Notes under the pieces: generated by a model
The model's database searches: none
Seen by the model: the letters and a program-made list of their open reading frames with translations, nothing else
Told to the model about the DNA's origin: nothing
Position numbers and translations under genes: made by a program
Shown here: in pieces, positions 1-20,000 of the stretch
Numbering within the stretch: the stretch's first letter is position 1
How the letters are laid out: each line of letters starts with the position of its first letter
Source of the DNA: Raillietiella orientalis
Lineage: Eukaryota
Direction of reading: 5' to 3'
Assembly: GCA_036172245.1 (NCBI GenBank)
Contig: JAYWIR010000083.1
Location: 298,696-318,695 of the forward strand
DNA: 20,000 nt

Positions 1-214
1 TCTTTAATAAAAAAATAAACAAGCAAGTGTAGGGCTATCTCCCCTACAGTGTTCAGAACATGTTCTTCTGAACTCGCCGAGTGGGCAGCACGCAGGCTCC
101 CAAGGTCGACTCGGCAGCGGAGGGGGAAGGGACAAATAGAAAAAAAGAAGAAAACACTATTTACAAAAGCAGGGAGGGGTTGGGGAGGGGATTACGTTCC
201 GCTGGAGACGTCCT
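1..214 (-). promoter_or_regulatory. E1 3'UTR with three stem-loops and an ATTAAA signal
   Basis: Inverted repeats TGTAGGG/CCCTACA (28-34/42-48), GTTCAGAA/TTCTGAAC (51-58/66-73) and GCCGAGT/ACTCGGC (76-82/109-115), with a C-rich then U-rich tract after the stop. Confidence 0.7.
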
Positions 215-3200
215 TTACATCCTTTGCAGGATGCCGGCAAGTTCAATCTGCATGTGTCCCAGATGGGTCCATCTGGCTGCCGTCCTCAAGAAGCGCAGGG
301 CGTAGCACAAGATGTCCCTATCGTTCGGTCCATAAGTGGCGGTGCTCCAAGCCGCTACAATCCCTCGTAGGCAGCAGAGGGCTGCAAGGGCTGCGGCAGG
401 CGAAAGGGCGTCGCGCACGAAGAGGCGCTTTAAAACGTCTCTGGGAGCGTGCAAGGGTGCACCAACGGCTGTTGCAAAGCGCAACCACAGGGGCCGGAGA
501 GCAACACAGTCAACGAGCAGGTGCGGGAGAGTTTCTCGTTCCCCGCACCTGACACAGTTTGGGTCCACAACCCCCCTCGTCCAATGAGAGCGGCGGGCGT
601 TGCTGGGGAGTCCCCAGTGCAACACCAGGAACGCCGACTCCTGCCACTTTAGGGGAAGGGCCCGAGTATTCCTCAGCACTGGCGGCCACTCGAGTTCATC
701 CCGCGGGATGCACAGCAGCTCGCCCCAGCGCAACAGTCCTCTCGGTGGGTAACTTGGGATCGCGGCATCAGCAAGCTGACCCGTGGTCCAACCACCTTGT
801 TCTTTCTCAGTGTCTCTGATCGTACACCGGACCTCCCACATGGCCGGCTGGCTACTGCCCAGATGTTCTTTGAGGTGGGACAGAGCTGTGGCAAGGGAGG
901 TCTTCTCAGCCCACGCACTCAAGGCGGGCTGCACGATGATGTCCTGCAGCGTGCGGCTCTTATGATAGGAGTGCAGCATTCGCTGCCGCAACTCCGGGCT
1001 CGCTTTCTCGATCTGCGCCCACGTGCGAAGGCTTTCCTGCAACCAGGAAGTGCCGTTCGCGGGCCGGCAGGAGATCCAGGTGTTCTTCCTGGTCAGCTTC
1101 GCCACTCGCCGAAGAGCCAGTCCGCAGTGGAACAGGTACCGGCGTTTGCGGCGCGCTAGGAAGGTAGACAGTCCCGCGCAGCCGCCGACTCGCTGAACCA
1201 GGCATCGTGCAGGTTCGCACCAGCTGGCGCTCCACAACTTCGCCACTTGGGCGATTGTTCGGAACTGCAGCTGCAGTTCGAGACGCTCCAGCGTGAGGAG
1301 GCCAAGGCCCCCATCGCGACGAGGGGCGCACAAGTCCTTCCAACGCGCGCGGGGCCTTCCTCTGCCCCAGATGGCGATTCTGAGGAGGTCCTTTGTACGT
1401 GTTCTCACACCACGGGGTGGGGGACAAACAAAAAGCAAGGAGCGAAACAGGGGGGCCACGAAAGTGTTCCACAGCACGGCCCGTTCCGGCAAGAAGAACT
1501 TGCCATCCAGGAACGGGCCGATCGCTCTCTCGGCCTTTTGGAGGCAGCAAGACCATTGTTCCGCTGGGGAGTAGTCCCCCAACGGCACACCGAGGTACTT
1601 AAGGTACCGTACCGTGGGGATCCCCAAGCGAGACCAGTCTAGCTGCCCTGCCCACGAGGAACCGACTGCAACAACGGACGACTTTGCTCTGTTCACCTCC
1701 AGTCCTGTCCCGCGACGCAGCAGCTCGAAAAAGTTTTCGACCGCCGACGCCGGGGTGGACATGGGGAGCAGCAGCAGAAGATCGTCCGCATACGCCGCCA
1801 AGGCCGGTGTACCTGGGCACACGCGCGGCAGGCGACCAAGAGTCTCCCTGAATGCCCTCAGCACCAACTCGAAGTAGGTGCTGAAGAGCAAGGGGCTCAA
1901 GCTCTCACCCTGCCGTATCCCGCGGCGCACCGGCACACCGAACACGTTCCTTCCCCTGAAAGAAATGTTGGTCAGCGCGTCGCGCCAGCAAGAGCGCAGA
2001 AAGGCCAATAAGGAGGCCGGGAAGCCCAAGCGCTCCAGACGCTCCAGCAGGAGCTCCTGGTCGACACTGTCGAATGCTTTCCGCAAATCGACAGCGACCG
2101 CGAGGGCCCCTTCTCTCTCCCGACTATTCCGCGAACCACCAGCGGACGTCCCGCAAATCGGGCTGCCGACCTTGTTTCCTCCATTCATTCTGGTTCTTTG
2201 AAGTTCGAACCAGGTGTTCGCGAAGAGCAGGTTGGCGTCCATGCTTCGCCCGGGAACAGCGTAGGTCTGCTCCGGGCTGATGAAGCTTTCCGCCACTAGC
2301 CCCATTCGCTCCGACCATAGCTTCGCAACCAGCTTGGCGTTCGCGTTCAGTACGGTAATCGGACGCCAATTGCTGAGGTTCCGTAAGTCTCCTCCTTTCG
2401 GTAGGAGACGCATACGTGCCGATGGGAAGGAGGCGGGAACGTCTCCTGTCTCCCGGATCAGCAGCGTTAGCCGCTGCACCAGGGGAGCCAGCTCCGCCGC
2501 GAAGCACTGAATAAACTCCGCGGGCAGGCCGTCTTCCCCCGGTGACTTCCGCCTTTTGAGCTTCCCGATTGCGGTGATGATTTCACCCATCGTGAAAGGC
2601 TCGTCCAGGCGTACTCTCTCTTCTTCCCCGATCGCCGGGGCACCGTCCGGAAGCAAAAATTGGGAAAATTCCCGGTCCGGAGGCACCCTGGTGTACAGGG
2701 AAGAATAATAGCCGCGCACTAGGCTACTCACCTCTGCCGGGGCCGAGTGCTCTTGGCCTTCGTCGTCCAGCAGGCTGGGCGACCCCGATTGCCAGGCCTG
2801 CCGCTCGGCCCCGGCTTTAAATTCCGCCAGTCTTCGGACGTCTGGTGTTCGGGAGTAACGACGGGCCTGCAGGTAAGCCCTATCGTTCCGAACACCTTCT
2901 CCAACTCCTTTCGGGAGACGGTCCATGGGGAACTGTTGGCAGAACTCTCGCACCGAGACTTTCAAATCGTCCCAGTCGTCGAGCGTCTGCAGGCTGAAAC
3001 CTCGCAAGAACGCGCGGAGGTGTTCCGCTGCGCCTGGCTTGGTCAGCCAGTCCCCCGGTCGACGCCACGCCTGCGCGGGGGGCCCCCTGTCGCGCGGGCG
3101 AATGACGAGTTCCACACGGGAGTGGTCGGAGACTGCGGACTGTATCTTACCTCGCCTGCCCACGCGACAGCGCAGGTGATCGTCGAGGAAGACGTGGTCC

Positions 3201-3781
3201 ACGCTCCGTTCCATCCCGGTATCCCCGGCTAACAAGTTGGATGCGTGCACCGCAGCGCACATCTCGTTAACCATGGTGGCCTCTGTCCTCGCCGCACCTG
3301 ATAGCAGGCGAATATTAAAATCGCCGGCTATCAGGTGCGCCGTGCGCGCGCCTGCCTCCGACAGCCAGTCGCGCTTGAACGCACGAAAAAACGCCGTCCG
3401 TGCCACGCGCGCGTGACCGCCGCTCGGCGCGTACACGTTCGTGACGACGAGATTGATGGAGTCGGACCACCTGAAGGTGATTTGCCCGACCCGACCTGCC
3501 TCATCGAAACGAACTTTCCGCACCGCGCGTTGTAAGGCAGGCTTCAGAAGGAAAGCGACCCCGCGCGTACGGCGGTGGCCGCATCGCCACATAAGCTGAC
3601 CACCTGCTATCCGTTCGATCTCCCGCGCATGTTCTGCGGAAATCTCATGGATCTCCTGCAGCAGCACGAAGTCGAAGGCTTGCAAGGTGGCAGCTATGTC
3701 TCGTCTCCTGCCGTCATTGCAAAGCCCGTTGACGTTCCAGCTGGCGATGCGTATTTGACGGCAGGTGGCGAGTCCCGGCAT
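215..3781 (-). CDS. E1 ORF2: APE endonuclease + reverse transcriptase + C-terminal CCHC (zf-RVT-like), 1188 aa
   Basis: EN motifs SWNVNGL, LLQE, NVYAP, GDFN, SVDH, SDH. RT motifs KSPGEDG, NWRPITVLN, DLRKAFDSVD, GIRQGESLSPLLF, YADD, KYLGV. Also GGLGL and C-terminal CVRC...ETLPHLLVDC. Confidence 0.97.
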   Translation of the reverse strand: MPGLATCRQIRIASWNVNGLCNDGRRRDIAATLQAFDFVLLQEIHEISAEHAREIERIAGGQLMWRCGHRRTRGVAFLLKPALQRAVRKVRFDEAGRVGQITFRWSDSINLVVTNVYAPSGGHARVARTAFFRAFKRDWLSEAGARTAHLIAGDFNIRLLSGAARTEATMVNEMCAAVHASNLLAGDTGMERSVDHVFLDDHLRCRVGRRGKIQSAVSDHSRVELVIRPRDRGPPAQAWRRPGDWLTKPGAAEHLRAFLRGFSLQTLDDWDDLKVSVREFCQQFPMDRLPKGVGEGVRNDRAYLQARRYSRTPDVRRLAEFKAGAERQAWQSGSPSLLDDEGQEHSAPAEVSSLVRGYYSSLYTRVPPDREFSQFLLPDGAPAIGEEERVRLDEPFTMGEIITAIGKLKRRKSPGEDGLPAEFIQCFAAELAPLVQRLTLLIRETGDVPASFPSARMRLLPKGGDLRNLSNWRPITVLNANAKLVAKLWSERMGLVAESFISPEQTYAVPGRSMDANLLFANTWFELQRTRMNGGNKVGSPICGTSAGGSRNSREREGALAVAVDLRKAFDSVDQELLLERLERLGFPASLLAFLRSCWRDALTNISFRGRNVFGVPVRRGIRQGESLSPLLFSTYFELVLRAFRETLGRLPRVCPGTPALAAYADDLLLLLPMSTPASAVENFFELLRRGTGLEVNRAKSSVVAVGSSWAGQLDWSRLGIPTVRYLKYLGVPLGDYSPAEQWSCCLQKAERAIGPFLDGKFFLPERAVLWNTFVAPLFRSLLFVCPPPRGVRTRTKDLLRIAIWGRGRPRARWKDLCAPRRDGGLGLLTLERLELQLQFRTIAQVAKLWSASWCEPARCLVQRVGGCAGLSTFLARRKRRYLFHCGLALRRVAKLTRKNTWISCRPANGTSWLQESLRTWAQIEKASPELRQRMLHSYHKSRTLQDIIVQPALSAWAEKTSLATALSHLKEHLGSSQPAMWEVRCTIRDTEKEQGGWTTGQLADAAIPSYPPRGLLRWGELLCIPRDELEWPPVLRNTRALPLKWQESAFLVLHWGLPSNARRSHWTRGVVDPNCVRCGERETLPHLLVDCVALRPLWLRFATAVGAPLHAPRDVLKRLFVRDALSPAAALAALCCLRGIVAAWSTATYGPNDRDILCYALRFLRTAARWTHLGHMQIELAGILQRM

Positions 3782-5382
3782 TACTGCTGGGAAAGTGATG
3801 CTGCGTCTCCCGCCTCACCTAGGGGCGGGACGCCGGCTTTCTCCTGTGCGGTGGGGGGCGGCTCGACGACCCCCTCCGTCTCCATCGGCTCCGTCTCGAC
3901 CGATCGTGGGAGTTCAGGACTCGTGTCCATCTCTCCCACGCTCGCCGCACCCTCGTTTCCGGAGGATTCCTCTTCCTCGGAGGAGACGATCCTCCTCGGG
4001 TTACGGATTTTCCTTCCGGTCTTCCTCGGGGGTGCAGATGCGGATGGTGCGTGTCCGGTCTCCGGGTCCGAGTCCGAGGTCCCGTTCCCCCTCCTCTCGG
4101 CCGGACGTCGAACGGCCTTCTTCCCGACCTTTGCGAGAGGCTGCTGACTGGCGGCGAGCTCGGCGGCGGCTTTTGCAAAGCCCGCGTCATCGCGGCTCTC
4201 CCCCTCGCCGCAGCCCTCGGACGCTGTTTGCACAGCGACGGGGCTGTCAGCGTTGTTGCACACGGCAACGTCCTGTTCGCACGGCACTTCGGCGTCTGCA
4301 AGGCGCTCCAGTGCGACCGTGCATTTTTTCAGTCCCTGCTTTTTCGCGGGTTTCGCGGCTTTTGCAGGGACTTTATTTTTATTATTTACGTCCTTTTTTT
4401 CTTTCTTTTTCTTTGGACTGACCTTTTGCCAGCCAGGCTCTTCTCCTTCCACCTCGGTTGCCTGCGTTTCTGCAGACGGGGTGGTCGGGATGCCCTTTTT
4501 GGCTGGCTCCGGGTCAACCGTATTTTCAGACGGCGGCCTGGTCTTGCCAGGCTTCTTGCTCGCGTTCGTGCCGCTCACGGCAGCAGCCGGCGCGCGCGAA
4601 GTCTTTTTGGGGCACACCTCTTCCGTGTGCCCGATTGCCTCGCACTTGCGGCAGGTGATGTTGGGGCAGCGTTTCTTCACGTGCCCCGTACCATCACAAA
4701 ACGCACAGTATTTGGGTTTCCCCAGATACCAGATGTCGACAGAATCTCCGTCGACTACTAGTTTATGGGGAACCTCAATGTCCTTATTCACAGTCACACG
4801 TGCCGCGGCGAGTCCGCTCAGGAGTCCGTCATAAGTACGGAACCTGTTCGGCTTCAGCCACAGCGCGTGTATGGTGCCGAATTTGCTGAGTTGAGCCCTG
4901 ACGGCGCTCGGTGACATCCGCACGGTGATTCCACGGAGGTGGAGAACTATTGAGTTGTCCACCGGGACAGGGAAGATCTGGCGGCCCTCGACCCTGACGG
5001 GGGTTCGCAGCAGTCTTTGCGCCAACCCTGCTTCTTTGCAGGTCAACTCGACATGCTGTCCCCCGCTGCGGATGGAGAGACCCAGCAGATCCTCCTTGTT
5101 AACGTTCAAACGGTGGAGCTCCTTCTCGAAGGAGCGCGCCCCACGGTCATCAAACACCCGGCCTACCTTATACAGCAGACTCGGGTTGTAGTTGTAGGCC
5201 TTGTAGGCCTGGGCCTCGGCGATGGCCGCTGCAGATGGCGCGGCGACCGCGGCGCTGTAGTCCCTCGCCGGCGCGGGGGACGAAGCTTTCGGGGCAGGTG
5301 CCCCTATCTCCATGGGTACGGGGGACGTTCGCCCGGCCCCCACCCCACATTCACTAGTGGCGGGATCAGGCATTTCTGCCAT
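3781..5382 (-). CDS. E1 ORF1: gag-like nucleic-acid-binding protein, 533 aa (start MAEMPDP)
   Basis: Two CX2CX4HX4C knuckles (CAFCDGTGHVKKRC, CRKCEAIGHTEEVC; 4612-4707) after an RRM-like region, followed by a K/E/P-rich low-complexity tail. Start chosen by homology to MAEMPED/MAAMPED in E3, E5 and E7. Confidence 0.9.
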   Translation of the reverse strand: MAEMPDPATSECGVGAGRTSPVPMEIGAPAPKASSPAPARDYSAAVAAPSAAAIAEAQAYKAYNYNPSLLYKVGRVFDDRGARSFEKELHRLNVNKEDLLGLSIRSGGQHVELTCKEAGLAQRLLRTPVRVEGRQIFPVPVDNSIVLHLRGITVRMSPSAVRAQLSKFGTIHALWLKPNRFRTYDGLLSGLAAARVTVNKDIEVPHKLVVDGDSVDIWYLGKPKYCAFCDGTGHVKKRCPNITCRKCEAIGHTEEVCPKKTSRAPAAAVSGTNASKKPGKTRPPSENTVDPEPAKKGIPTTPSAETQATEVEGEEPGWQKVSPKKKKEKKDVNNKNKVPAKAAKPAKKQGLKKCTVALERLADAEVPCEQDVAVCNNADSPVAVQTASEGCGEGESRDDAGFAKAAAELAASQQPLAKVGKKAVRRPAERRGNGTSDSDPETGHAPSASAPPRKTGRKIRNPRRIVSSEEEESSGNEGAASVGEMDTSPELPRSVETEPMETEGVVEPPPTAQEKAGVPPLGEAGDAASLSQQ

Positions 5383-5455
5383 CCCCCGACCACTGATGCA
5401 CCGCACTACACCAATAAAGTCGAGCGAGTCAGGAGCGCGCAGAGAACACGTCTGA

Positions 5456-5905
5456 CCGTCGTCGCTGCTGGTGTTGCATTGGGGACTTCCTTGCAACGCC
5501 CGCCGACACCACTGGACGCGGGGGGGTGTCAACCCTAATTGTGGCAGGTGCGGGGAGAGGGAATACCTCCCCCACCTGTTAGTGGTTTGTGTTGCCCTCC
5601 GTCCCTTGTGGGAACGCTTTGCCGCAGCCCTGGGGATCCCCGGAGGCAACCCCAGAGACGCTTTGCGCCCCCTCTTCGTCCGTGACGCCCTGCCTCCAGC
5701 GGCCTCGCTTGCAGCCCTGTGCTGCCTACGCGGGATCGTCGTGGCATGGAGCAAAGCGACGGGAGGATCCAGCGACAGGGATGCCAACGTGTATGCCTCC
5801 CGTTTCCTCAGGATGGCGACGCGATGGCCCCATCTGGAACCGCACACGCAGAAGCAGCTTGCCGGCATCCTCCAGAGTATGACGGACCCTCCCAGCAGAC
5901 TGTGA
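5456..5905 (+). pseudogene. E2 ORF2 C-terminal remnant (CCHC region)
   Basis: ORF-track 5471..5905 peptide aligns with the last ~140 aa of E1 ORF2; no N-terminal part is present. Confidence 0.88.
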
Positions 5906-6121
5906 TCCCTTTCCGCTCCCTCCCTGATTTTTGTTTATTTTTTTGTTTTCTTTTTGTTTCGTTCCCCCTCCCCTCTGCTGCCGAGGTCGACCGCGCCGGT
6001 CTGCGCACCGGTAGCCCGGCAGGCTATATCTTTCCAGGGCGTGGCTGGACTACTGGTGCAGTCACAGATTATATAGGTTTATTCGTGAGAATAAAGGTCC
6101 TGGCGCTCACGGGTTTCAAGC
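5456..6121 (+). mobile_element. E2: 3' fragment of a related element (ORF2 C-terminus + 3'UTR)
   Basis: LLVLHWGLPCNARRHHW...CGRCGEREYLPHLLVVC is homologous to the E1 ORF2 end; stop at 5903-5905, T-rich UTR, AATAAA at 6090-6095. Very similar to the 3' end of E6. Confidence 0.9.
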
Positions 6122-6922
6122 GAGATTCCGGAGGGTGACGCCTCTCAGGAATTCGCGAAGGTGTTCCTTCGCATCTGAGAGGCGCGTCCAGTCCCCAGGC
6201 AACCGCCACGCCCTGGACGGGGATCCGTTGTCGCGCGGGCACACCTCGAATATCAATTTGGAATGGTCAGACAGTTTCGACGCAACTTTCCCCCGTTTGC
6301 CGACCCGCGAGCACTGGTCGACGTCCAGGAAGACGTGGTCGATGCTGCTGACCATTTCCGGGAGTTCCCCTAACAAGTTGCGCGTGCGCATGGCAGCGCA
6401 CAACTCGTTAGCCGTCCGTTCCTGTGTGCGTGGCTCACCTGATAGCAGGCGGAGATTCAAGTCTCCCGCTATCAGGTGAGCCACGCGCACGTTCGCTTCC
6501 ACCAGCCAGTCGTGCTTCAGGGTTTCCAGGAACGCCGCGCGTTCCCGGTACCTGTTATAACCGCTCGGGGCGTATACGTTTGTTACGACGAGGTCGATTG
6601 TGTCGGACCATGTGAGAATCAGCTAGCCGACACGACGGGCTTCGTCAAAGCGCACGCCCTTCAAGGCAGCGTCGACCGCCGGCTTCATGAAAAACGCGAC
6701 GCCGCAGGTGTATCGGGTGCCGCATTGCCACACCAGCCGCCCCCCTGCGATCCTCTCGATCTCCTGGGCGTTCTCCCCGGTGATCACGTGGATCTCCTGC
6801 AGGACTGCCTGGTCGAAGTCACGCAGGGTGGCTGCCGTGTCCCGTCTGTTGCTGTCGTTGCGCAGCCCGTGGACGTTCCAACATGCCACACGCAATCGAC
6901 GACGACAGGCGAGCCCAGGTGT
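6122..6922 (-). pseudogene. E3 ORF2 N-terminal APE endonuclease (truncated, one stop)
   Basis: CWNVHGL, VLQEIH, NVYAPS, GDLN, SIDH, SDH; TAG at 6623-6625; no RT. Confidence 0.9.
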
Positions 6923-8936
6923 TATTCCCGGGAAAGTGGCAATGGGGCTCCCGCCACCTGGTCGGGCGGGACGGATGGAGGCATGGGGGCACCGTTCAGC
7001 GGTTCTCTTACTTCCATGGGGGCCGATTCCTCGGCGGACCGCAACGGTTGAAGGGAGCATGCTTCACGCACCTCCATCCCCTCTTCCATGGGGGCCGATT
7101 CCTAGGCTGCGTTGACGGCAGGGGGGAGCGGTTCTCAGCTATCTGCTCCCCCTCTTCCATGACCATCTCCGCAGGCTCCACCGGTGGAAGGGGGAGGCAA
7201 TGCCCTACCTGCTCCCCCTCCTCCATGGGGGTGGCCGGCTGCTCGGTGGCGGAGGGTGGGAAAATTTCTCCCTCCGTTCCCACGCTGCCGGCTTCCCCCT
7301 CGGCTGCCGGTGCGTCCCCCTCGCTCTTCGTCGGGATGCGCCTCTTGGGATTCTTGGACTTCCGTCCAGTCTTCTTCGGAGGCGCCTCCGTGGAGGACGC
7401 ACTTCCGGCATCCGGGTCGTGGTCACCTGTCGGAGATGCCCTGGTCGCGGCCGGCCTTCGCAAGGCCTTTCGCGCGCCGTTCTCACGGTCGGCGAGTTCG
7501 GCCGCGAGCTCTTCCTCCGCCTGCTGGAAGGCGGCCTCGTCGATCTTGGCGAGCGCGTCGCGCGGTTCCCCCTCTGTTTGCACAAAGGGTTCGCCTTCCG
7601 TGATCGCGTTATCGTCGGCATCGACGCGGGGGATATCTCCCCCGGTGGCGGTCTCGGGTACCTCCACACGCTCCAAAGCGACCGAACATTCGCGGAGCAA
7701 CGCGCGGCGTTGTCTCCTATTAAAAGGAGACGTCGCGGGTTTCGCTGTCTACCCTTCGGTTTTCTTGGTTTTCTTGGCTTTAGGCTTCGCCTTCTGCCAG
7801 CCTTCGCTCTTTTCAGCGTCGTCGGTAGATTCCACGACCGGCGTTTGCTGCACGGGCTCGGGCTCCGGTTGTGGGTTCCGTCTCACGGGTGCCTTCGCAG
7901 GCTTTTCCGTAGCCCCCGCGCGTTTTTCTTTGGCCTTTTTCAAGGCAGCGGGAGCCGGGGGTTCGCGCTTCGGGCACACTTTGCGGAGGTGGCCCTTCTC
8001 TCCACAGTGGAAACACTGGATGTGAGGGCACCGCTTTTTCAGGTGCCCTGTGGAATCACAGTGTCCACAGTACTTGGGCTTGCCCACGTACCAGACGTCG
8101 ACGGTCTCGTTGCCGACGTCTAGTTTGTGGAGTAGCCCACCGTTTTCGTGGACGGTTACACGCGCACCAGCCATGCCACTAAACAGTCTTCCGTAACTCT
8201 GGAAGACGTTGGGCTTGGTCCATAGCGCGTGAACCGTTCCGTGTTTTCCGAGTTCCTCCTGCACGTCGGCTTTCGACATGCGGAGGGTGACTCCCGTGAG
8301 GTGCGTCACCACGGAGCGATCCTCCGTTACCGGGAAAACCTTTCGGCCTTCCAGTGTGATTGGCGTATTCAGGAGGTGTTGAGCAAGGCTTGCATTTCTG
8401 CAAGTCAGCTCCACACGCTGACCACCACTCAACACGGAAAGACCTTCCAGGTCTTCCTCTTTTACGTTCAACCGCTGCAACTCCCTTTCGAAGTTGCGAG
8501 CGGTGTTCCCCACAAACAGATTGCCTACCTTGTATATAAGGGACGGCTTCTATCTCTGCTCCAGGTAGGCTTTCTGCTCGGCGAGGGCTGCAGGAGATGG
8601 GGCTGCAGCCACTGAACTCCAGGTCTTCGGCGATGCCGAAGACGCATTCGAGGGTGCAGGTGCCCCCTTCTTCAAGGAGGCGGTTGCGCCCTTTTCCAGG
8701 GTTGCGGTTGTCCTCTTTTTCAAGGGGGCGGTTGCACCCTGTTCCAGCGGGGCTTTTGCGTCCTTTTTCAAGGGGGCCTTTGCCCTTGCTTCCGAGGCTG
8801 CGGTTGCCCCCTTTTTCAGGAGTGCGGCTGCCGTAGCCTCCGTGGGGGCGGTTGCCCCCACCTCCGTGGGTTGGGGAGAGGAGCAAGCCTCTCCCCCTCC
8901 TATATCCATCGCGGTGTCCTCAGGCATTTCTGCCAT
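6922..8936 (-). pseudogene. E3 ORF1 (disrupted)
   Basis: MAEMPED start; knuckles CGHCDSTGHLKKRC and CFHCGEKGHLRKVC; in-frame TAG at 8550-8552 and 7749-7751; frameshift near 7110; homologous TAA at 6924-6922. Confidence 0.88.
8653..8868. repeat. Nine degenerate 24-bp tandem units (8-aa repeat, approx. LKKGATAP) in the E3 ORF1 N-terminus
   Basis: Units such as GAGGCGGTTGCGCCCTTTTCCAGG, GTTGCGGTTGTCCTCTTTTTCAAG and GGGGCGGTTGCACCCTGTTCCAGC at an exact 24-bp period. Confidence 0.85.
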
Positions 8937-9022
8937 TGGACACCGCAGATGCTATACACACAAACACAATCGAAACCAAACGCTTTACACCAGGCGCGGA
9001 GGAGCGCTAGAAAAACACGTCG

Positions 9023-11178
9023 CACGTCAAGTTGATAGCAGGGCTATGGGCTTCGCGTCTGAAGCAGGTGGCAGAATCCGTAATTAGCCCGGAGCAGACT
9101 TATGCTGTTCCCGGGCGAAGTATGGATGCCAACCTCTTCTTCGCAAGCACATGGGTGCACCTGCAGAGAAGAGAGAAGAAAGGGATCGGGAAATTCGGCA
9201 ACCCCACATTGGGGCCGCCAGCCGGGCTGGGAAGGAACCCCCGGGCGGGGAAGGGGGCCCTAGCGCTCGCAGTCGATCTCCACAAGGCGATCGACTGTGT
9301 AGACCAGGAACTCCTTTTGGAGCTCCTGGGTAGCATGGGCTTCTCACCCTCCCTGATTTCCTACCTGCGCTGTTGCTGGCGGAATGCGATGATTACCGTG
9401 TCTTTCAGTGGTCACAAGGTGTATGGCGTGCCGGTTCCGCGAGGCATAAGGCAGGGAGATAGCCTCAGCCCCCTGCTCTTCAGCACCTACTTTGAGTTGG
9501 TGCTGAGAGCGTACAGGGTGACTTTGGGCCCCTTGCCGAGCTCGTGCCCCGGCACGCCCGCCGTAGCAGCGTACGCCGACGATCTTCTGCTCTTGTTGCC
9601 AATGTCCACCGCGGCAAAGGCGGTCGGAGACTTCTTCGATCAGCTCAGCCGCGGGACCGGACTGCAGGTCAACAGGGCGAAGTCGTCGGTTGTGCCAATA
9701 GGTGCGGCGTGGGCAGAGCAGCAGGACTGGGTCCGTCTGGGGATCCCCACGGCGAGGTGCTTCAAGTACCTTGGTGTGCCGTTGGGGGACTACTACCCTG
9801 CGGAAGCGTGGTCCACCTGCCTCCAAGAAGTCGAGACGGCGATCGGCCCGTTTCTGGAAGGCAAGTTTCACTTGCCGGAACGGGCTTCGGTTTGGAACCC
9901 TTCGCGGCCCTCATCCTCCGCCCCTTGCTTTTTGTTTGCCCCCCCACCGTGGAATCCAAGAAGAGGACAAAGGACCTCCTCCGTATCGCCCTTTGGGGCA
10001 AGGGGATACCCCGAGTCCCTCTGAAGGACTTGTTCGCTCCGCGTCGGGACGGGGGTCTTGTCCTCCTGACGCTGGAGCGCGTTGAGAAGCAGCTGCGGTA
10101 GCGAACCCTCGCCATCGCAGCGAAGATGTGGAGCACCCCTTGGTGCACTCCGGCTCGCCTCCTGGCCAGCCGTGTGTCCCGGTGCGATGGACTCGCGTCT
10201 TTTCTTCCGAGCCGTGGCCGGAAGACGCGAAGATGCGGCCTACTGTTCGGGCGCATGGCAACATTGACCAATAAGAACAGCTGGATGGTTTGCTGTTCCG
10301 CCAACTCCCCCGCCTGGCTGGAGAAGAATATTGGAACGTGGGCAGTGGTTAACCAGACAAGCCACGAGACGTGGAATCGTCTCCGATGCAGCCCCTACGC
10401 CCGCTGCACGCTGCGGAATCTCCTGGAGAGTCCAGCAAGATGCACGTGGGCAGAGACGACCTGCCTATCTACGGCGCTGCCCTTCTTGAGGAGGGCACTT
10501 CACAGCAGCCGGACGCCAAGGTGGCAAGTCTCCTGCTGCATCGAGGGACGCGAGAAGTTGATTAGCGGCTGGACAACAGGAGAACTGTCCGATGCCACGA
10601 CCCCGAGCGTCCAGCCGCGAGCATTAGTAAGATGGGGCGAGCTGCTCGCCATCCCCAGGGATGAGCTGAAGTGGTCCTTGCTTCTCCAGGAATCCAGGAT
10701 CCTGCCCCTCAAGTGGCAACAGTTGGCGTTGCTGCTGTTGCAGTGGGGTCTACCCTGCAACGCGCGCCGCTTCCACTGGACGAGGGGAGCTGTGGATCCT
10801 GCGTGTGCCAAGTGCGGGGAGCGGGAGTCTCTCCCCCACCTTATTGTGGATTGTGCTGCCCTTCGACCCCTTTGGGAACGGTTCGGGACGACCCTCGGGC
10901 TCCCTACGGGCAGCACCCCCAGAGACGTACTTCGGCCCCTCTTCGTGAAGGACGCACTGCAGCCAGCCGCAGCCATCGCAGCCTTGTGCTGCGTCCGTGG
11001 CATCGTGGCGGCATGGAGCGACGCCAACAACGAAGGAGTGGGTCCACAGGCGAGGGATGTCATCCCGTATGCGCAACGCTTCTTGCGAAGAGCTGCCGGA
11101 TGGCCCCAACTGGGGAATATGCAGACAGACCTTGAGGGCTTCGTTCGAGGGATGGGCCCTCCCCACAGCGACCAGTGA
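9023..11178 (+). pseudogene. E4 ORF2 remnant: RT + CCHC
   Basis: ISPEQTYAVPGRS, GIRQGDSLSPLLF, YADD, KYLGV, CAKCGERESLPHLIVDC; frameshift near 9900 and TAG at 10099-10101. Confidence 0.92.
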
Positions 11179-11383
11179 TCCCTTCCCTGCCCTCCAACTT
11201 TTTGTTTGTTTCTTTTTATTTTTTCTTTTTGTCTTATCCCCATGCCCCTTCGCTGTCGGGGAGTGCCACGCCGGGCTGCGTCCTTGTGTCCCGACAGGTC
11301 CTGTGTTTACGGCCGTGGTGGGGCCTTGTACCACGCATGTAGAGTTTATTAATAAACGCCCCGGGCGTACCCGGGTGATAACG
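9023..11383 (+). mobile_element. E4: element lacking its 5' part (RT, C-terminus, 3'UTR)
   Basis: Begins at VKLIAGLW in early RT; stop at 11176-11178; T-rich UTR; AATAAA at 11351-11356 followed by a CCCGGG-CGTA-CCCGGG hairpin. Confidence 0.9.
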
Positions 11384-11402
11384 CCGAATCCCTTGGCGAG
11401 TG

Positions 11403-11414
11403 GACGTGTTTTTC
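11403..11414 (+). promoter_or_regulatory. Conserved 5'-terminal motif GACGTGTT(T/C)T (candidate internal promoter or start)
   Basis: The same motif occurs at 5452-5441 (-), 9021-9010 (-) and 16957-16968 (+), each ~70-90 nt before the ORF1 ATG and within a few nt of the element's 5' junction. Function is inferred. Confidence 0.5.
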
Positions 11415-11488
11415 CTTCGCTCCCGAGTGAGTCGACAGGAAGCGGTTTTTTCTTTGTGTGTGTTCGTGTGGAACATCGTTGGTGTCCG

Positions 11489-13228
11489 ATGGCAGCGATG
11501 CCTGAGGACACCACGATGGAGGTAGGTGTGGTGGAGGCTTGCCCACCCCCGCAGCCTACAGAATCAGGGGCGTCCGCCCCGGAATCGCCGTCGCCGCCGA
11601 AGGCGAGGAGCTGGAGCGCCATGGTGGCCGCGCCGAGCGCGGAAACCATGGCCGAGATGGCGGCCTACCGGGCAGTAGAGTACAAGCCCAGCTTGGTGTA
11701 CCAGGTAGGCCCCTTATTTGATAGAAAAACGGCACGCGCGTTTTCGAAAGCGCTGCAAAACGCCGAAGTAAGAGAACAAGATCTTCACGGCCTGTCCGTT
11801 CTCAGCGGAGGTCAGCGAGTCGAGGTGGTGTGCAAGGAGATCACCTTGGCTCAGAGTCTGATCACCAACCCGTTTGACGTCGACGGCCGCAAGATCTTGC
11901 CTGTGACGATGGACCGCTCCGTGGTGGTCAATCTCACTGGAATAACGAGCCGTATGACTCGCTCTGCGGTAGCACAATAACTTCGGAATTTCGCCGAGGT
12001 GCACGCTAAGCCAACAAACTTCGAAGGCTTTAATAGCCATTTCGGAGGCCAGGCTGCAGCGCGGGTAAGCGCGAATAAGGACTGTGGGCTTCCCCACAAG
12101 CTGGAGGTCGCGCAAGAGAGCGTGGATCTCTGGTACGTGGGAAAGCCCCGGTATTGCAACTACTGCGATACCGTAGGACACCTTCGCAAGAGGTGTCCTA
12201 ACATCCGATGCCACATGTGCGGGGAGAAGGGCCACGTTCGATGTGTTTGCCCAAAGCGCCCCATCCCGGTTCCTCCTGCCGCCAAAAAAGCGCAGGGGAA
12301 ACGCGCTGTGAAGGTCACAAGACCTAAGGCGGACGCTGGCCGGCTTAAGCTGCCGGATCCTCAATCTCCAAAAGAAAAAACGGAGGATAAATTTTCCCAA
12401 GAGGCGGAAGGTGAAGAGGGCTGGCAACTTGTAGCCGCCAGAAAAGAGAAAAAAGCTCCTTGAAAGGAGAAGAAAGAAAAGTCGACCGCTAAGGCAAAAA
12501 AACCCGGGCCGCGTTCGAAAACCGTACGCGAGTGCACGGTGGCATTGGAACGTATCGTCGTTCCTGAAGATGCCACCCGGGGCGACGAACCTCCCCTTGC
12601 CGTTTCCGATGCGCCCGAAGTTCGCGACGGCGAACCCTCTGTGCAAACAGAGGGTGAGCCGCGCGACGGGCCGGTCGACACCGAGGACGCCGCGTTCGCG
12701 CAGGCGGCGGAGGAGCTCGCGGCCACGCTGGCGGAGCGTGAGAACCGCTCACGCAAGGCCGTGCGAAGGCCTGCTCCCGCGAGAAAGGCCCCCACAGGTG
12801 AGTTGGACCTGGGGGCCCGAAGCACATCCTCCTCCTCGGAGGCACCCCCCAGGAAGTCGGGACGCAAGTCCCAGAAACCCAGGAGGCGCCTACCCTCCAC
12901 CAGCGAGGAGGAGAAGCAGGAAGGTATTGGTAGCGTGGGAATCCCGGAGGGGGAACTCCCACGCTCGGAAGCCGTCGAGCCGGCCACTCCCATGGAGGAA
13001 GGTGAGAAGGGACGCGATGTCCTCCCTGCAGTCGCTGAGCCTGAACAGCTTGCCCCCATGGAGGAGGGCCAACAGATAGGCGCGACCCCACCTGAGGGTG
13101 ACCCGCTCGACGCTCCTTTATCCATTGAGAAGGGGGACCAGGTGCATGCAGCGCCTGACCATCCTCCTCCACCTAGCGTCCCGCCCCTACAGGTGGCGGA
13201 CGCCGCATCGCCATCTTCCCAGGAGTAA
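11489..13228 (+). pseudogene. E5 ORF1 (two in-frame stops)
   Basis: MAAMPED start; CNYCDTVGHLRKRC and CHMCGEKGHVRCVC; stops at 11978-11980 and 12461-12463; a single frame to TAA at 13226-13228. Confidence 0.9.
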
Positions 13229-14070
13229 CACCTGGGCTCGCCAGTCGCCGTCGGATTCGTGCCACCTCTTGGAACGTCAACGGGCTGCGCGACGACGGTA
13301 ACAGGCGAGATACGGCCGACACCCTGCGTGAGCTCGACCTGGCCCTGCTGCAGGAGATCCACGTATTCACCGCAGCAGACGCCCAGGAGATCGAGACGAT
13401 CGCGGGGGGTCGGTTGTATTGGCGATGCGGCCTCCGCAACACCTGCGGGATCGCGTTCTTCGCGAAGCCGGCCATCGACGCTGCCGTGAAGGGCGTGCGC
13501 TTCCCTGACGACGGTCGGGTCGGTCAGCTGATTCTCAGCTGGTCCGACTCGATCGAACTGATCGTCACGAATGTGTACGCCCCCAGCGGTAAACAGGTAT
13601 ACAGCGACCGCACCAGGCTGCTGGAATCCCTGAAGCGCGACTGGCTGGCGGACAAGAACGTGCGAAAGGCTCACCTGATAGCGGGAGAGTTCAATCTCCG
13701 CCTGCTAACAGGTGAGCCAGAAACACAAGAAAACGCGATGAACGAGTTGTGCGCCGCCATGCGTGCGCGCAACTTGTTCGCGGGTGAGAGGGGAATGGTC
13801 CGCAGCATCGACCACGTCTTCCTCGACGCTGACCTGTGTTCACGGGTCGGCAAACGTGGGAGGGTTGCGTCGAGGTTGTCGGACCATTCCCGGTTAATTT
13901 TCGAGATGCGGCCTCGCGACATGGGACTGCCATCCAGGGATTGGCGTCTGCCGGGGGACTGGACGCGACTCTCAGGTGCGAAGGAACACCTTCACGAATT
14001 CCTGAGAGGCGTCACGCTCCAGATTCTCTCTTTAAACCCGGTACGCCAAGACGTTTATTTTTTCAAATAA
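13228..14070 (+). pseudogene. E5 ORF2 APE endonuclease only (open frame, ACA at the start position, GDFN changed to GEFN)
   Basis: SWNVNGL, LLQEIH, NVYAPS, GEFN, SIDH, SDH; homology ends at 14028 and the frame runs into the antisense E6 UTR to TAA at 14068-14070. Confidence 0.88.
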
Positions 14071-16953
14071 ACTCATATAAACTGTGACTGCACCAGTAGT
14101 CGAGCCACGCCCTGGAAACATTCAGCCTGCCGGGCTAGCGGTGCACAGACCGGCGCGGTCGACCTCGGCAGCAGACGGAAGGGGGAATCAAAGAAAAAGA
14201 AAACAAAAAAAAATAAACAAGACCGGGTAGGGAGCGGGAAGGGATCACTGTCTGCTGGGAGGGTCCGTCATCCTCTGGAGGATGCCGGCAAGCTGTCACT
14301 GAATGGTGGCTTCCAGATGGGGCCATCGCGTAGCCATCCTCAGGAAACGGGCGGCGTACACATTGGCGTCCCTGTCGCTGGACTTTCCCGTCGCTTTGTT
14401 CCAGGCCACGACGATCCCGCGTAGGCAGCACAGGGCTGCAAGCGAGACCACCGAAGGCAGAGCATCACGTACGAAGAGGGCGCGCAAAGCGTCTCTAAGG
14501 TTGCCACCGGGGATCCCCAGGGCTGCGGCAAAGCGTTCCCACAAGGGACGGAGGGCAACACATTCCACAAGCAGGTATAGGAGGTATTACCTCTCCCCGC
14601 ACCTGACACAATTGGAGTTTAAACCCCCCCGCGTCCAGTGGTGTCGGCGGGTTATGCAGGGGAGGCCCCAATGCAACACCAGGAGTGCCGACTGTTTCCA
14701 CTTCATGGGGAGGGTGCGCGAGTCCATGAGCACCGGCAGCCACTCCAGATGTTCTTCGGAACATCCAGTAGCTCGCCCCAGCGCAAGAGTCCGTGTGGGG
14801 TGGTCCTCGGGGTCGCAGCGTTGGTGAGCTGACCCGTTCTCCAATCCCCGATCTTCTTTGCCCTGCTGGCGATCTTGACAGTAACCTCCCATTGTGCCGC
14901 GATGTCGCTGCCCAGATGTTCCCATAGGGTAGGCAGTACCGCAGAAAGGGAGGTTCTTTGTGCCCACGCTCTCCTTCGGGGATTCTCGATGATTTCTCGG
15001 AGCGTGCGGTGGACATGCGGCCCGAACAGAGCTATTCGCTCGTGTTGCGAGCTCTGCTCCTGAATCATCGCCCACGTGCGCACGGGTTCCTGCAGCTAGG
15101 CAGGACCGTTCCCGGGGCGTACGAGGATCCGCGTCGAGTTGGTCTTCACGAGCTTGGCCGCCCTTCGAAGCTGAAGTCCGCAGTGGAAGATGGGGCTTCG
15201 GAGTGCAAAGTAGGACGAGAGTCCCCCATTGCCGGTGGCCCGCTCGACGAGGAGACGTGCAGGGAGGCAACAGGCGGTGCACCAATTTTTTGCCACAAAG
15301 GCAACACTCCGGAACTGGAGCTGAAGCTCCAACCGCTCCAGCGTCAGAAGGCCAAGACCGCCGTCCCGACGCGGAGAGCACAAGTCCGCGAGACGGACCC
15401 GGGCCTCCCTCTGCCCCAAAGGGCTATCCTCAGGAGGTCCTTCGTCCTTTTCCTAGACTCCGCTGAGGGGGGCAAACAAAAAGCAAGGGGCGAAGGTGCG
15501 ATGCCGCAAACGCGTTCCACGCCGCGGCCCGTTCCTGCAGGTGGAACCTGCCGTCCTGGAACGGGCCGATCGCCGCCTGAGCCTTCTGAAGGCAGGGGGA
15601 CCACGCTTTTGCAGGGGAGTAGTCCCCCAACGGCACACCAAGGTACTTGAAGTACCTCACCGTGGGAATCCCCAAACGGACCCAGTCCTGCTGCCCTGCC
15701 CACGCCGCTCCGACTGGCATTACGGACGACTTCGCCCTGTTCACCATAAGTCCGGTTCCCCGATGCAGCAGGTCGAAGAACTCCTCGACCGCCGAAGCCG
15801 GGGTGGACATATGGAGCAGTAGCAGAAGATCGTCCGCGTATGCCGAAACCGCAGGCGTTCCGGGACAATCGCGCGGCAGGTGCGCCAGAGTCTCCCTGTA
15901 CGCTCTCAGCACCAATTCGAAAAAGGCGCTAAAGAGCAGTGGGCTCAGGCTGTCTCCCTGCCGTATGCCGCGTCGCACCGGTACTCCGTGCACGGTTTGC
16001 CCGCTGAAAAGAACATTAATGAGCGCGTCGCGCCAGCTGGAGCTCAGGTAGGCCAACAAAGAGGCCGGGAAGCCCAAGCGTTCCAGAAGCTCCAGCAAAA
16101 GATTCTGGTCGACGCTGTCGAATGCTTTACGCAAGTCGAGAGCGACCGCAAGGGCTCCCTTCCCCACCTGACCGTTCCGTCTCCCGCCAACAGACGCACC
16201 GGAATTCCGGCTGCTCAATAAGCCCCTTCCTTGTTGGAGCTCTAACCATGTGGAAGCGTGGAACAGGTTCGCCTCCATGCTCCGCCCGGGAACAGCATAA
16301 GTCTGTTCCGGGCTGATGAAGATGTTGGCGACCCGTCCCAGGCGCTCTGCCCACATCTTGGCTATCAACTTGGCGTCCGCATTCACTATTGTGATGGGAC
16401 GCCAGTTGTTCATGCTTCTTAGGTCTCCTCCCTTCGCGAGGTAGCCGCATCTTTGCTGAACGAAACGAGGTGGGAACGTCACATGTTTCGCGAATCAGCA
16501 AGGTGAGCTGATGTACCAGAGGGGTAAGCTCTGCCGCGAAAGTTTGGTACAACTCCGCGGGTAGGCCGTCCTCCCCTGGAGCCTTCCGCCTCTTGAGCTT
16601 GCCGATGGCCGAGAGGATCTCGTCCATCGTGAAAGGCTCGTCGAGGCTTCTTTTCTCCTCCTCCCTGATCTCTGTAGCACCTTCCGAAAGCAGGAGTCCT
16701 GAGACGTCTCGCTCCGGAGGCGCCCTGGAGTACAATGAGGAGTAAAATTTGTTCACAATCCCGCGCTTCTGAGCAGGAGCCGAGTGCTCCCGGCCCTGGT
16801 CGTCCAGCAAGCTAGCTGACCCGGATTGCCAGGCTTGCCTCTCGGCTCCCGCTTCATACTCTGCTAACCTGCGCATGTCGGGGGTTCTCGCGTAACGTCG
16901 GGCCTGAAGATAGCACCTTTCGTTACGCGGCCCCTCCCCAAATCCCTTGGGGT
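14029..16953 (-). mobile_element. E6: element lacking its 5' part (linker, RT, C-terminus, 3'UTR); same subfamily as E2
   Basis: Starts at PKGFGEG in the EN-RT linker; AATAAA at 14059-14054; 3'UTR nearly colinear with 5906-6121. Confidence 0.9.
14245..16953 (-). pseudogene. E6 ORF2 remnant: RT + C-terminus
   Basis: KAPGEDG, NWRPITIVN, DLRKAFDSVD, GIRQGDSLSPLLF, YADD, GGLGL; frameshifts (e.g. near 16445 and 15465) and stops (14587, 14296). Confidence 0.92.
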
Positions 16954-19698
16954 GCGGACGTGTTTTTCCTGAGCTCCCGAGCGAGTCGACAGGAAGCGGT
17001 TTTTTCTGTGCGTTTTCTTGTGTGGAACATCGTTGGTGTCCGATGGCAGCGATGCCTGAGGACACCACGATGTAGGTAGGTGTGGGGGAGGCTCGCCCAC
17101 CCCCACAGCCTGCAGAATCAGGGGAGTCCGCCCCAAAATCATCCCCGGTAACGCCGAGGACGTGGAGCGCCATGGTTTCCGCGCTGAGCGCGGAAACCTT
17201 GGCAGAGCAAGCGGCCTACAAGGCCTCCGGATATAAACCATCTCTGGTTTAGAAGGTAGGAGTCCTGTTTGATGGTCTCACCGCCCGGGCTTTTAGTAGG
17301 GCACTGCAGGATTTCCCTGTACGAGAGGAGGATCTTGACGGCCTCTCCGTACTCAGCGGGGGGCAGCGCGTGGAGGTCGTCTGCAAAGACGTAGCCTTAG
17401 CACAGCGCCTCATTAACACCCCGCTGAATGTGGATGGCTGGAAGATCCTGCCGGTTAGCATGGACCGCTCCGTAGTGGTCCATCTAACCGGCATTACGAT
17501 CCGCATGACGCGATCTGCGGTGAGTAATGCACTAAGTAAGTACGGTGAGATACACGCGTTGTGGCCAAAGCCTACCATTTTCGAAGGCTTTAATAGCCAT
17601 TTCGGAGGCCAGGCCGCAGCGCGTGTAACGGTAAATGAGTGCAGTGGCTTGCCGCACAAACTGGAGGTCGCCAAGGAATCCGTCGACCTCTGATACGTGG
17701 GGAAAGCCCGCTAATGTTGCTACTGCGATGCACTAGGGCACTCGCAAGCGGTGCCCGAATATCGAGTGCCACTTGTGCGGGGTTAAGGGACACGTTCGTC
17801 GTGTGTGCTCCAAACGCCCCACCCCGGTGCCACCTGCTGTCAAAAAGGCACAGGCAAAAAAAAAATGAAAAAAGGTCGAAAGACCTTATCGCGAAACTGG
17901 CCGGCCCCAGCCGCCATCTCCTGTTCCTCCCACCCAGGCGTCGGAGGAAAAACTTGCTGAAGACGCGGGAGAGGAAGAAGGATGGAAGCTGGTAAATGCC
18001 AGAAAAGAAAAAAAAGTTGCCCCCGTGGAACCCACGAGAGCGAAGAGAGAAAAGAGCTCGAAACCGAATAAACCTGGTCCGCGCTAGAAAACTCTTCGCG
18101 AGTGCACGGTGGCACTCGAACGGATTGCCGTCCCCGAGGCTGCCACCCGGGGCGACGGGCCTCCCCTCGCCGTTTCCGCCGCGCCCGAGGTTCGCGACGA
18201 CGAACCCTCTGTTTGCACAGAGGGTGAGACGCGCGACGCTCTCGCCGCCGTCGAGGACGCCGCCTTCGCGAAGGCGGCGGAGGAGCTCGCGGCCACGCTG
18301 GCTGAGCGTGAGAACCTCTCGCGCAAGGCCGTGCGAAGACCGGCTCCAGTAAACAAGGCCCCCGCAGGTGAGTTAAAACTGGGGGCCGGAAGTACATCCT
18401 CCTCCTCGAAGGCACCCCCCGGAAGACGGGACGCAAGTCCCAAAAGCCGAGGAAGCGCCTCCCCTCCACGAGCGTGGAGGAGAAGCAGGAAGTCGCCGGC
18501 AGCGTGGGAATCCCGGAGGGGGAGCTCCCACCCGCGGAAGCCGTCGAGCAGGACACCCCCATGGAGGAGGGTGAGCAGGGGGCGAAGTCCTCCTTGCCGG
18601 CGCGGACCATGTACAGCCCACCCGTATGGAGGAGGGCCAACAGGTAGGCGCGACCCCACAAGAGGGTGACCCGCCCGACGCGCCGTCACCGATGGAGCAG
18701 GGGGACCAGGTGCTCGAGGCACCTGTCCCTCCTGCCCGAACTAGCGTCCCGCCCCAACAGGTGGCGGACGCCGCAGAGCCGATTATTCAGGAATAACACC
18801 TGGGCTCGCCTGTCGCCGTCGAATCCGCGCGGCCAGTTGGAACGTCAGCGGGCTGCGCGACAATGGGAACAGGCGAGATACGGCCGACTCCCTGCGTGAG
18901 CTCGACCTGGTGCTGCTGCAGGAGATCCACGTGTTCACCGCGGCAGACGTCCAGGAGATCGAGACGATCGCGGGAGGTCGGTTGTATTGGCGATGCGACC
19001 TCCGCAACACCTGCGGGGTCGCCTTCTTGGTGAAGCCGGCCATCGACGCTGCCGTGAAGGGCGTACGCATCGATGACGACGGTCGGGTCGGTCAGCTGAC
19101 TCTCAGCTGGTCCGACCCAATCGAATTGATCGTCACGAACGTGTACGCCCCAGGCGGGAAAGGGGGATACAGCGACCGTATCAGGTTGCTGGAAACCCTG
19201 AAACGCGACTGGCTGGCCGATACGAACGTGTGGAAAGCACACCTGATAGCTGGGGACTTTAATCTCCGTCTGCTGTCAGGTGAGCCCGAAGCACAAGAAC
19301 GCACGGCCAACGAGTTGTTCGCTGCCATGCGCAAACGCAACTTGTTGGCAGACGCGGAGGGAATGGACCGCAGCATCGACCACTTCTTCCTGGATGTCGA
19401 GCTGTGCTCGCGGGTCGGCAAACGGGGAAAAGTTGCGTCGACGCTGTCGTACCATTCCAGGATCATCGCCGAGGTTTGCCCGCGCTACAAAGGACCCCCG
19501 TCCAGGGCGTGGCAGCTGCCTGGGGACTGGACGCGGCTCTCAGGTGGGAAAGAACACCTTCGCGAATTCCTGAGAGGCCTCACCCTCCGCAGTCTCCAAG
19601 ACTGGGACCCCTTCAAGGCCTCGGTCCGCGATTTCTGCGAGGAGTTCCCCCTGCACCGCCTGCCCCCCGGATTTGGGGAGGGGGCTCGAAATTATAGA
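16954..19698 (+). mobile_element. E7: element with 5'UTR, ORF1 and EN (E5 subfamily), RT absent
   Basis: 5'UTR closely matches E5; ATG at 17043; EN from 18796; homology ends at GFGEGARNYR (~19698). Confidence 0.9.
17043..18796 (+). pseudogene. E7 ORF1 (multiple stops and frameshifts)
   Basis: MAAMPEDTTM then TAG; EGFNSHFGGQAAARV identical to E5; TGA at 17691-17693; degenerate knuckles; TAA at 18794-18796. Confidence 0.88.
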
Positions 19699-19728
19699 TT
19701 AGGAACGTTTACTACCAAAGATCCCTGA
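18796..19728 (+). pseudogene. E7 ORF2 APE endonuclease + start of linker (open frame, SDH changed to SYH)
   Basis: SWNVSGL, LLQEIH, NVYAP, GDFN, SIDH, then WDPFKASVRDFCEEF; TGA at 19726-19728 lies in UTR-like sequence. Confidence 0.88.
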
Positions 19729-19952
19729 CCCCACCATCCACTGTTTTTTTTTTGGTTTCTTCTGTTATGTTTTGTTTATTTTCTATCCTTCTCCCTTCGT
19801 TTTTTTCTTTTAAAAGGCAACCTGCGTGCCGGTGATCACTGTGAACTGAACTTTCTGTATGGGCGTTTCTTGTGTTCTGAAAGGATGAATTTGCCTTGAA
19901 GATTGCGGTTCGTTTTTACAAATAAACGTCCCGGCGCAACCGAGTTCAAAAC
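19699..19952 (+). mobile_element. E8: 3'UTR of a family member, joined directly to the E7 linker
   Basis: GATCCC, C-rich and T-rich tracts as at 5904 and 11177; ends AATAAACGTCCCGGCGCAACCGAGTTCAAAA like the other 3' ends. Confidence 0.72.
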
Positions 19953-20000
19953 GCATCAGCGAGGAAAGGCTTAGCACCACATGTTCCTCGACAACCAACT

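Follow-up and report, generated by a model that had tools for sequence, protein, structure and literature searches.

Two antisense LINE-in-LINE junctions at one coding site in Raillietiella orientalis

A 20,000-nt stretch of Raillietiella orientalis DNA (assembly GCA_036172245.1, contig JAYWIR010000083.1, positions 298,696–318,695 of the forward strand), here called the window, consists of 100% repeats. It is a patchwork of pieces of L1-like long interspersed nuclear elements (LINEs) of two related kinds, A and B, and its G+C content is ~60% across all 20 kb. In two places the 3′ terminus of one A subfamily, A3, adjoins a B-type element in antisense orientation, at the same base near the end of the B endonuclease (EN) domain. 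The two junctions, their probable origin, and the competing explanations are described here.

Elements of the window

The order of elements was built from self-comparison of the window by BLAST, tblastn with the E1 proteins, and alignments of element ends. E1, E2, E4, and E6 are of type A; E3, E5, and E7 are of type B. E1 (1–5454, minus strand) is a nearly full-length A element whose 3′ terminus lies just outside the window. E2 (5455–6121, plus strand) is the last 667 bp of an A3 element and includes the C-terminus of open reading frame 2 (ORF2) and the 3′ untranslated region (UTR), with a canonical 3′ terminus at 6121. It adjoins E3 (6122–9031, minus strand), a B-type 5′ part with a 5′UTR, a 24-bp array, ORF1, and an EN that has one in-frame stop and is cut after a Leu codon at 6122. 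E4 (9021–11383, plus strand) is an A element of subfamily A2 that lacks its 5′ part and runs from the reverse transcriptase (RT) to the 3′ terminus. E5 (11384–14028, plus strand) is a second B-type 5′ part, with a 5′UTR, ORF1, and an EN open for 284 codons, cut after a Leu codon at 14028. E6 (14029–~16950, minus strand) is the 3′ 2.9 kb of an A3 element, with RT, a C-terminus carrying frameshifts, and a 3′UTR whose 3′ terminus is at 14029; its homology stops at the PKGFGEG codons. E7 (16938–~19955, plus strand) is of type B with an open EN.

E2 and E6 are 87% identical, and each is ~70% identical to E1 and E4. The A and B endonucleases are ~67% identical at the DNA level, and ORF1 is homologous between the two types by tblastn. 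The B EN matches PF03372 (~1e-9).

The two junctions

E5, on the plus strand, reads GTCACGCTCCAGATTCTC followed by TCTTTAAACCCGG, with the break at 14028/14029. E3, on the minus strand, reads GTCACCCTCCGGAATCTC followed by GCTTGAAACCCGT, with the break at 6122/6121. The two breaks share one alignment column, directly behind the same Leu codon (...TCTC). Since the first insert base can be assigned to either side, the position carries an uncertainty of 1–2 nt. Each host is joined to the inverted canonical 3′ terminus of the A3 subfamily, E5 to E6 and E3 to E2. The homologous site is unoccupied in E7 (FLRGLTLRSL/QDWD, 19596/19597) and in E1 (FLRGFSLQTL/DDWD, at ~2980), where the linker reads without interruption. 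An earlier note on this DNA had claimed an identical antisense junction occurring twice at one Leu codon, joined each time to the inverted 3′ end of a single subfamily and uninterrupted in E7 (TLRSL/QDWD) and E1 (SLQTL/DDWD); all of this was confirmed. The note had also described the orientation as always antisense, which here means 2/2 junctions.

The ends of E2 and E6 agree to within 1–3 nt with the 3′ end points of E4 and the E7 tail. This coincidence indicates that each junction joins an element terminus to a target, as target-primed reverse transcription (TPRT) makes, and is not a random break. A single BLAST high-scoring segment pair spans both junctions (5455–6973 against 14695–13177, 82.7%). 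Both A3 termini in the window (2/2) end precisely on the same target base. Two random insertions into a ~3-kb element would be expected to share base and orientation about once in 6000, so chance is no explanation, and the choice lies between site preference and common descent.

The host sequence that ends at the inferred nick is conserved (13984–14028, plus strand), with equivalents at 6122–6166 (minus strand) and, uninterrupted, at 19552–19596 (plus strand). It holds a 26-nt core common to all three B copies. The last 94 bp before the nick are 88–90% identical (E7/E3 90%, E5/E3 88%) and form the best conserved part of the B EN in comparisons with E3, which looks like conservation of the site. 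No matches to the 26-nt host word were found in genome and viral collections. A metagenome scan with a 19-nt word from the A3 3′UTR returned six loci, all matching just 19–20 nt and attributable to chance.

An inverted repeat of 10–11 nt, with its arms 24–26 nt apart, is present in both hit copies (13966–13976/14001–14011 and 6139–6148/6175–6184). In each, 17 nt separate it from the inferred nick downstream; by eye it is shorter in E7. The repeat could help to direct nicking through its structure, or simply reflect the coding sequence.

All four 3′ termini (6072–6121, 14029–14078, 11335–11384, and 19906–19955) are without a poly(A) tail, and the A and B tails have a conserved ~35-nt end in common. 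A stem containing AATAAA and a small GC stem can be drawn in the last ~45 nt of all four. A conserved 3′-terminal hairpin structure was rejected as a claim, since compensatory change was seen in just 1 of the 12 predicted pairs.

Hosts, inserts, and the origin of the junctions

Hosts and inserts were compared separately. The host ENs of E5 and E3 differ at 165/847 positions in a pairwise alignment and at 177/852 in a MAFFT alignment; the inserts E6 and E2 differ at 85/665 and 88/666, respectively. Hosts are thus more diverged than inserts (177/852 vs 88/666, Fisher p = 1.3e-4). The difference is also seen when CpG transitions are removed (17.4% vs 11.3%) and with transversions alone (11.4% vs 6.9%). 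The earlier note had stated this contrast, and the equal host and insert divergence that it had set against its own reading was not found within the window.

Host EN phylogeny was examined with E3, E5, and E7, using E1 as the outgroup. Overall, 8 of the 57 informative sites favored grouping the two interrupted copies, E5 and E3, and this grouping appeared in 0 of 1000 bootstrap replicates. In the first 458 bp of EN, 27/37 informative sites place E5 with E7 and 5/37 place it with E3. In the last 394 bp, 13/20 sites place E3 with E7 and 3/20 place it with E5. E5 and E3 are thus each closer to uninterrupted E7 than to one another. Upstream of EN, E5 and E7 are 63–92% identical per 150-column bin vs 48–70% for E5 and E3, and E3 carries large private indels. 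Among these is the 24-bp tandem array (8647–8832, 7.8 copies, 65% matches), which occurs only in E3, as the earlier note had reported. With a further two-copy stretch, the repeat region takes up 8647–8870 at the start of E3, and much of the E3-specific length is due to it.

The B EN is a mosaic when its three copies are aligned (13177–14028, 18745–19596, and 6122–6973): the tree switches near 13635. This points to probable recombination among B lineages near that position.

Differences were also tallied by codon position. Host differences between E5 and E3 are distributed 49/42/80 (p = 8e-4) and host transversions 25/23/49 (p = 0.0015), and the excess is also present in non-CpG changes. Host GC is 74% at third and 64% at first codon positions, values too close for GC to explain a two-fold third-position excess. 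In the coding part of the inserts, E2 and E6 differ 13/13/27 (p = 0.025). A third-position bias on both sides indicates that part of the divergence arose under purifying selection, before the truncated, dead copies existed. Dead DNA copied as DNA should decay evenly by codon position, so the bias argues that the two hosts, and likewise the two inserts, came from different active lineages.

From these comparisons, A3 probably entered the sister LINE B twice, independently, by target-primed insertion, each time at a favored position within a conserved part of the B coding sequence. A3, as seen in E2 and E6, would hit the same phosphodiester bond of B (±1–2 nt) at the end of the endonuclease domain. 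The A3 ribonucleoprotein would nick the B sense strand right after ...TCTC. The 3′-OH at the nick would prime reverse transcription of the A3 RNA at its 3′ terminus, which is conserved and has no poly(A). Priming from a sense-strand nick would leave the new A3 copy antisense to its host, with putative second-strand steps completing the insertion. Antisense junctions at the precise 3′ terminus of one subfamily are what TPRT predicts. The site may be chosen by the specificity of the endonuclease or by annealing of read-through RNA with the host flank. Guidance by read-through RNA, with the host flank annealing at the target, has been discussed for rDNA-specific LINEs. The earlier note had proposed two independent site-specific insertions. 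Independence is supported here by the divergence step, the host trees, and the third-position excess; site specificity across the genome is not established by just 2/2 ends.

Several observations weigh against independent insertion at a preferred site. There are two cases (n = 2) in one 20-kb window. No 5′ junction, target-site duplication, or filled and empty allele pair is visible in the window, and each insert is truncated at its 5′ side by a neighboring element, E2 by E1 at 5455 and E6 by E7 at ~16940. No A3 endonuclease lies within the window. The insert codon-position test is based on 53 differences. The 3′ junctions of E4 and of the E7 tail are at other sites, so specificity, if real, is confined to A3. 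Further points bear also on the alternative that one ancestral A3-into-B junction was copied as DNA, by local inverted or segmental duplication, and that recombination or gene conversion later diversified the hosts. The composites [E2 E3] and [E5 E6] are inverted arms around E4 in one window, the layout expected from local inverted duplication, and the single BLAST segment pair crosses both junctions. The EN mosaic shows that recombination or gene conversion occurs in the family and could blur the trees. E5 and E3 are 88% identical in the last 94 host bp, as alike as the inserts at 87%, and identity by itself does not put the divergence step exactly at the junction. The host and insert contrast is also weaker in the last 394 bp (75/394 vs 88/666, p = 0.013). 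Duplication is nevertheless unlikely. Divergence is uneven along the arms, at ~13% in the inserts, ~20% in EN, and 30–50% with large indels in ORF1 and the 5′UTR, and conversion tracts would be needed over nearly all 2.9 kb of host, ending at the junction. The E5 and E3 grouping is favored in neither EN half, and the third-position bias on both sides is unlike the neutral decay of duplicated dead DNA.

A composite might instead be the amplified unit. An A3 source within B would have been read through its 3′ end, and the resulting RNA, A3 plus antisense B, would have been retrotransposed as a 3′ transduction, with variable 5′ truncation and a junction inherited by every daughter. The A3 sides do differ in length (667 bp and 2.9 kb) while both B sides reach the B 5′ end, a pattern like variable 5′ truncation with a shared distal end, and the A3 terminus is without poly(A). 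Antisense B would, however, be non-coding cargo, yet the E3 and E5 differences show a coding-strand third-position bias. Across ORF1 and the first half of EN, E5 resembles the free-standing E7 much more than it does E3, which would in any case require at least two acquisitions of the cargo. The distal ends carry 11–13 nt of microhomology typical of LINE 5′ junctions and not a precise TPRT start. Transduction is accordingly rated quite improbable. Least probable is an assembly artefact, with false joins made in a repeat-dense region. Beyond the wholly repetitive sequence, what favors it is the sole public sequencing run found, which contains a fraction of 0.14 of the sampled window words, aligned as 324 short contigs. 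Among the contigs listed from that run none bridges 14028/14029, and one 300-nt contig with 9 differences ends at 14028; that end would fit a branch point but proves nothing. False joining is countered by the presence of the junction twice, in copies that differ at 13–20% of positions on both sides, and by the fact that B sense and the inverted A3 terminus have no common sequence to mislead an assembler.

Beyond two independent insertions, A3 could be an obligate "parasite of a parasite," with genome-wide, always-antisense homing to a ~25–45-nt conserved coding sequence at the end of the B EN. This extension is tentative and rather doubtful. B would then be used as a safe harbour, and each copy hit would become inactive. 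The guide would be an endonuclease with evolved sequence specificity or a read-through RNA annealing to the nicked target.

If the preference extends genome-wide, A3 would be a sequence-specific, L1-like LINE that targets a coding site of a competing sister LINE. Such an element would bear on the origin of target specificity in apurinic/apyrimidinic endonucleases (APEs), on competition between LINE families, and on the build-up of all-LINE nested regions, for example candidate centromeric or heterochromatic clusters. It would also offer a natural endonuclease and target pair for biochemistry. If the preference fails genome-wide, the window would be no more than a common graveyard of nested LINEs, with one junction that is either coincidental or duplicated.

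Other junctions and known systems

E7 loses homology to A ~100–125 bp past the linker site and continues into a 3′UTR-like tail (19720–19955). The tail ends in the family terminal motif at ~19955, with a score reached by 0/2000 shuffles. Using tblastn with the E1 proteins, no RT was found in E7 and no B-type RT in the window. The earlier note had held that the insertions cut the host EN off from its RT; this is not supported, since E7 alone among the B copies runs on beyond the site and it is without RT. From this one copy, either B is an RT-less derivative with ORF1 and EN or E7 was broken by a separate 5′-truncated fragment.

The E7 3′ terminus (19955/19956) is followed by E8 (19956–20000, plus strand), an EN-like fragment in sense orientation. 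E8 was read by eye, from sequence alone, on the resemblance of HMFLD to SIDHVFLD; BLAST of E8 against the other window elements gave no match. This LINE-in-LINE junction differs from the two A3 junctions in site and orientation.

The exact E4 3′ terminus adjoins the exact E5 5′ terminus in the same orientation (11383/11384). The abutment could have arisen if reverse transcription jumped end to end from one template to another, or from two insertions side by side. A search for a target motif common to the E4 flank, which is the B 5′ end, and the E2 and E6 flanks gave no significant result (p = 0.14 and 0.38).

E3 and E7 are both joined at their 5′ ends to A-type coding sequence in antisense. 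At E3, where the partner is E4, 11 nt can be assigned to either element (9021–9031); at E7, where the partner is E6, 13 nt can (16938–16950). The two overlaps lie at two different A positions. Microhomology of this kind, 11–13 nt long, is typically seen where the 5′ ends of LINEs are joined. A reading in which E7 simply nests within E6 was rejected: the right flank of E7 is the sense EN-like piece and not the remainder of E6. The region is thus not a clean onion of nested insertions, and the patchwork looks like insertions with loss of target DNA. Two further candidates, a B 5′UTR derived from the antisense of the post-linker region and an E6 that reaches the linker, were discarded as spurious tblastn extension (shuffles p ~ 0.5).

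In E1, ORF2 (215–3814, minus strand) is open for 1199 aa and encodes EN, RT, and a putative zinc-binding domain, with matches to PF03372 (2.7e-14) and PF00078 (1.7e-21) and a sub-threshold match to zf-RVT. ORF1, the 5′ ORF (~3784–5412, minus strand), has two CCHC knuckles in its translation and no Pfam match. The stop-free frame of E1 ORF1 (3781–5934, minus strand) extends ~170 codons past the likely ATG (~5412) into E2 antisense, and it matches antisense frames from the 3′ regions of other A-type elements. The over-long frame most probably results from the GC richness of the antisense coding sequence. An extension of E2 to 5333 was spurious; true homology begins at ~5455–5470.

The nearest solved structure to E1 ORF2 is human L1 ORF2p (E = 3.1e-46). 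A protein search with E1 ORF2 gave 14 matches, the best 26% identical and the nearest ones spanning 22–28%, with no close copy among them. With a predicted N-terminal apurinic-like endonuclease followed by a reverse transcriptase in ORF2, the elements are classed as APE-type, L1-like retrotransposons without long terminal repeats.

Xenopus Tx1L sits in a DNA transposon. A published paper names Tx1 and R1 as the APE-encoding, target-specific LINE clades and lists as targets of such LINEs rRNA genes, snRNA genes, microsatellites, telomeric repeats, and transposons (PMC4640811). The A3 junctions resemble these systems in having a precise 3′ terminus at one base of a repeated target with a variable 5′ side, and in having another mobile element as the target. 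They differ in that the target is a coding stretch, the EN end, of a sister LINE ~67% identical to A in EN, hit in antisense, that two junctions are known, and that the nearest solved structure is human L1. Target-specific LINEs and self-nesting LINE clusters are already established; searches of open-access text turned up no account of antisense homing by a LINE to a coding site within a sister LINE.

In the twin-priming model of L1 inversion, both arms are derived from a single RNA, with the 3′ end at the outer margin. The A3 junctions are similar to twin-priming inversions as inverted junctions inside LINE sequence formed in retrotransposition. They are unlike them in that the 3′ terminus is at the internal junction and the arms come from different families.

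Internally deleted, non-autonomous derivatives of R2 (R2 SIDEs) have been reported (PMC3414825). By comparison, E7 looks like ORF1, EN, and 3′UTR without RT, with the family 3′ terminus kept. In contrast to R2 SIDEs, there is a single such copy, and E7 is equally explicable as broken by a separate 5′-truncated fragment.

Zepp and ZeppL of green algae are described as L1-type LINEs that insert into existing copies and form dense nested clusters mostly of 3′ parts; the clusters are GC-rich, at 61% in Coccomyxa (PMC8226300, PMC3446292). The window is likewise all LINE pieces, at ~60% GC, with dense LINE-in-LINE structure. As described there, Zepp forms tandem arrays of 3′ ends from nested insertion, with no defined coding-region base. 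Compared by description, the junctions in the window differ from Zepp in being antisense and without poly(A), and in joining two diverged families.

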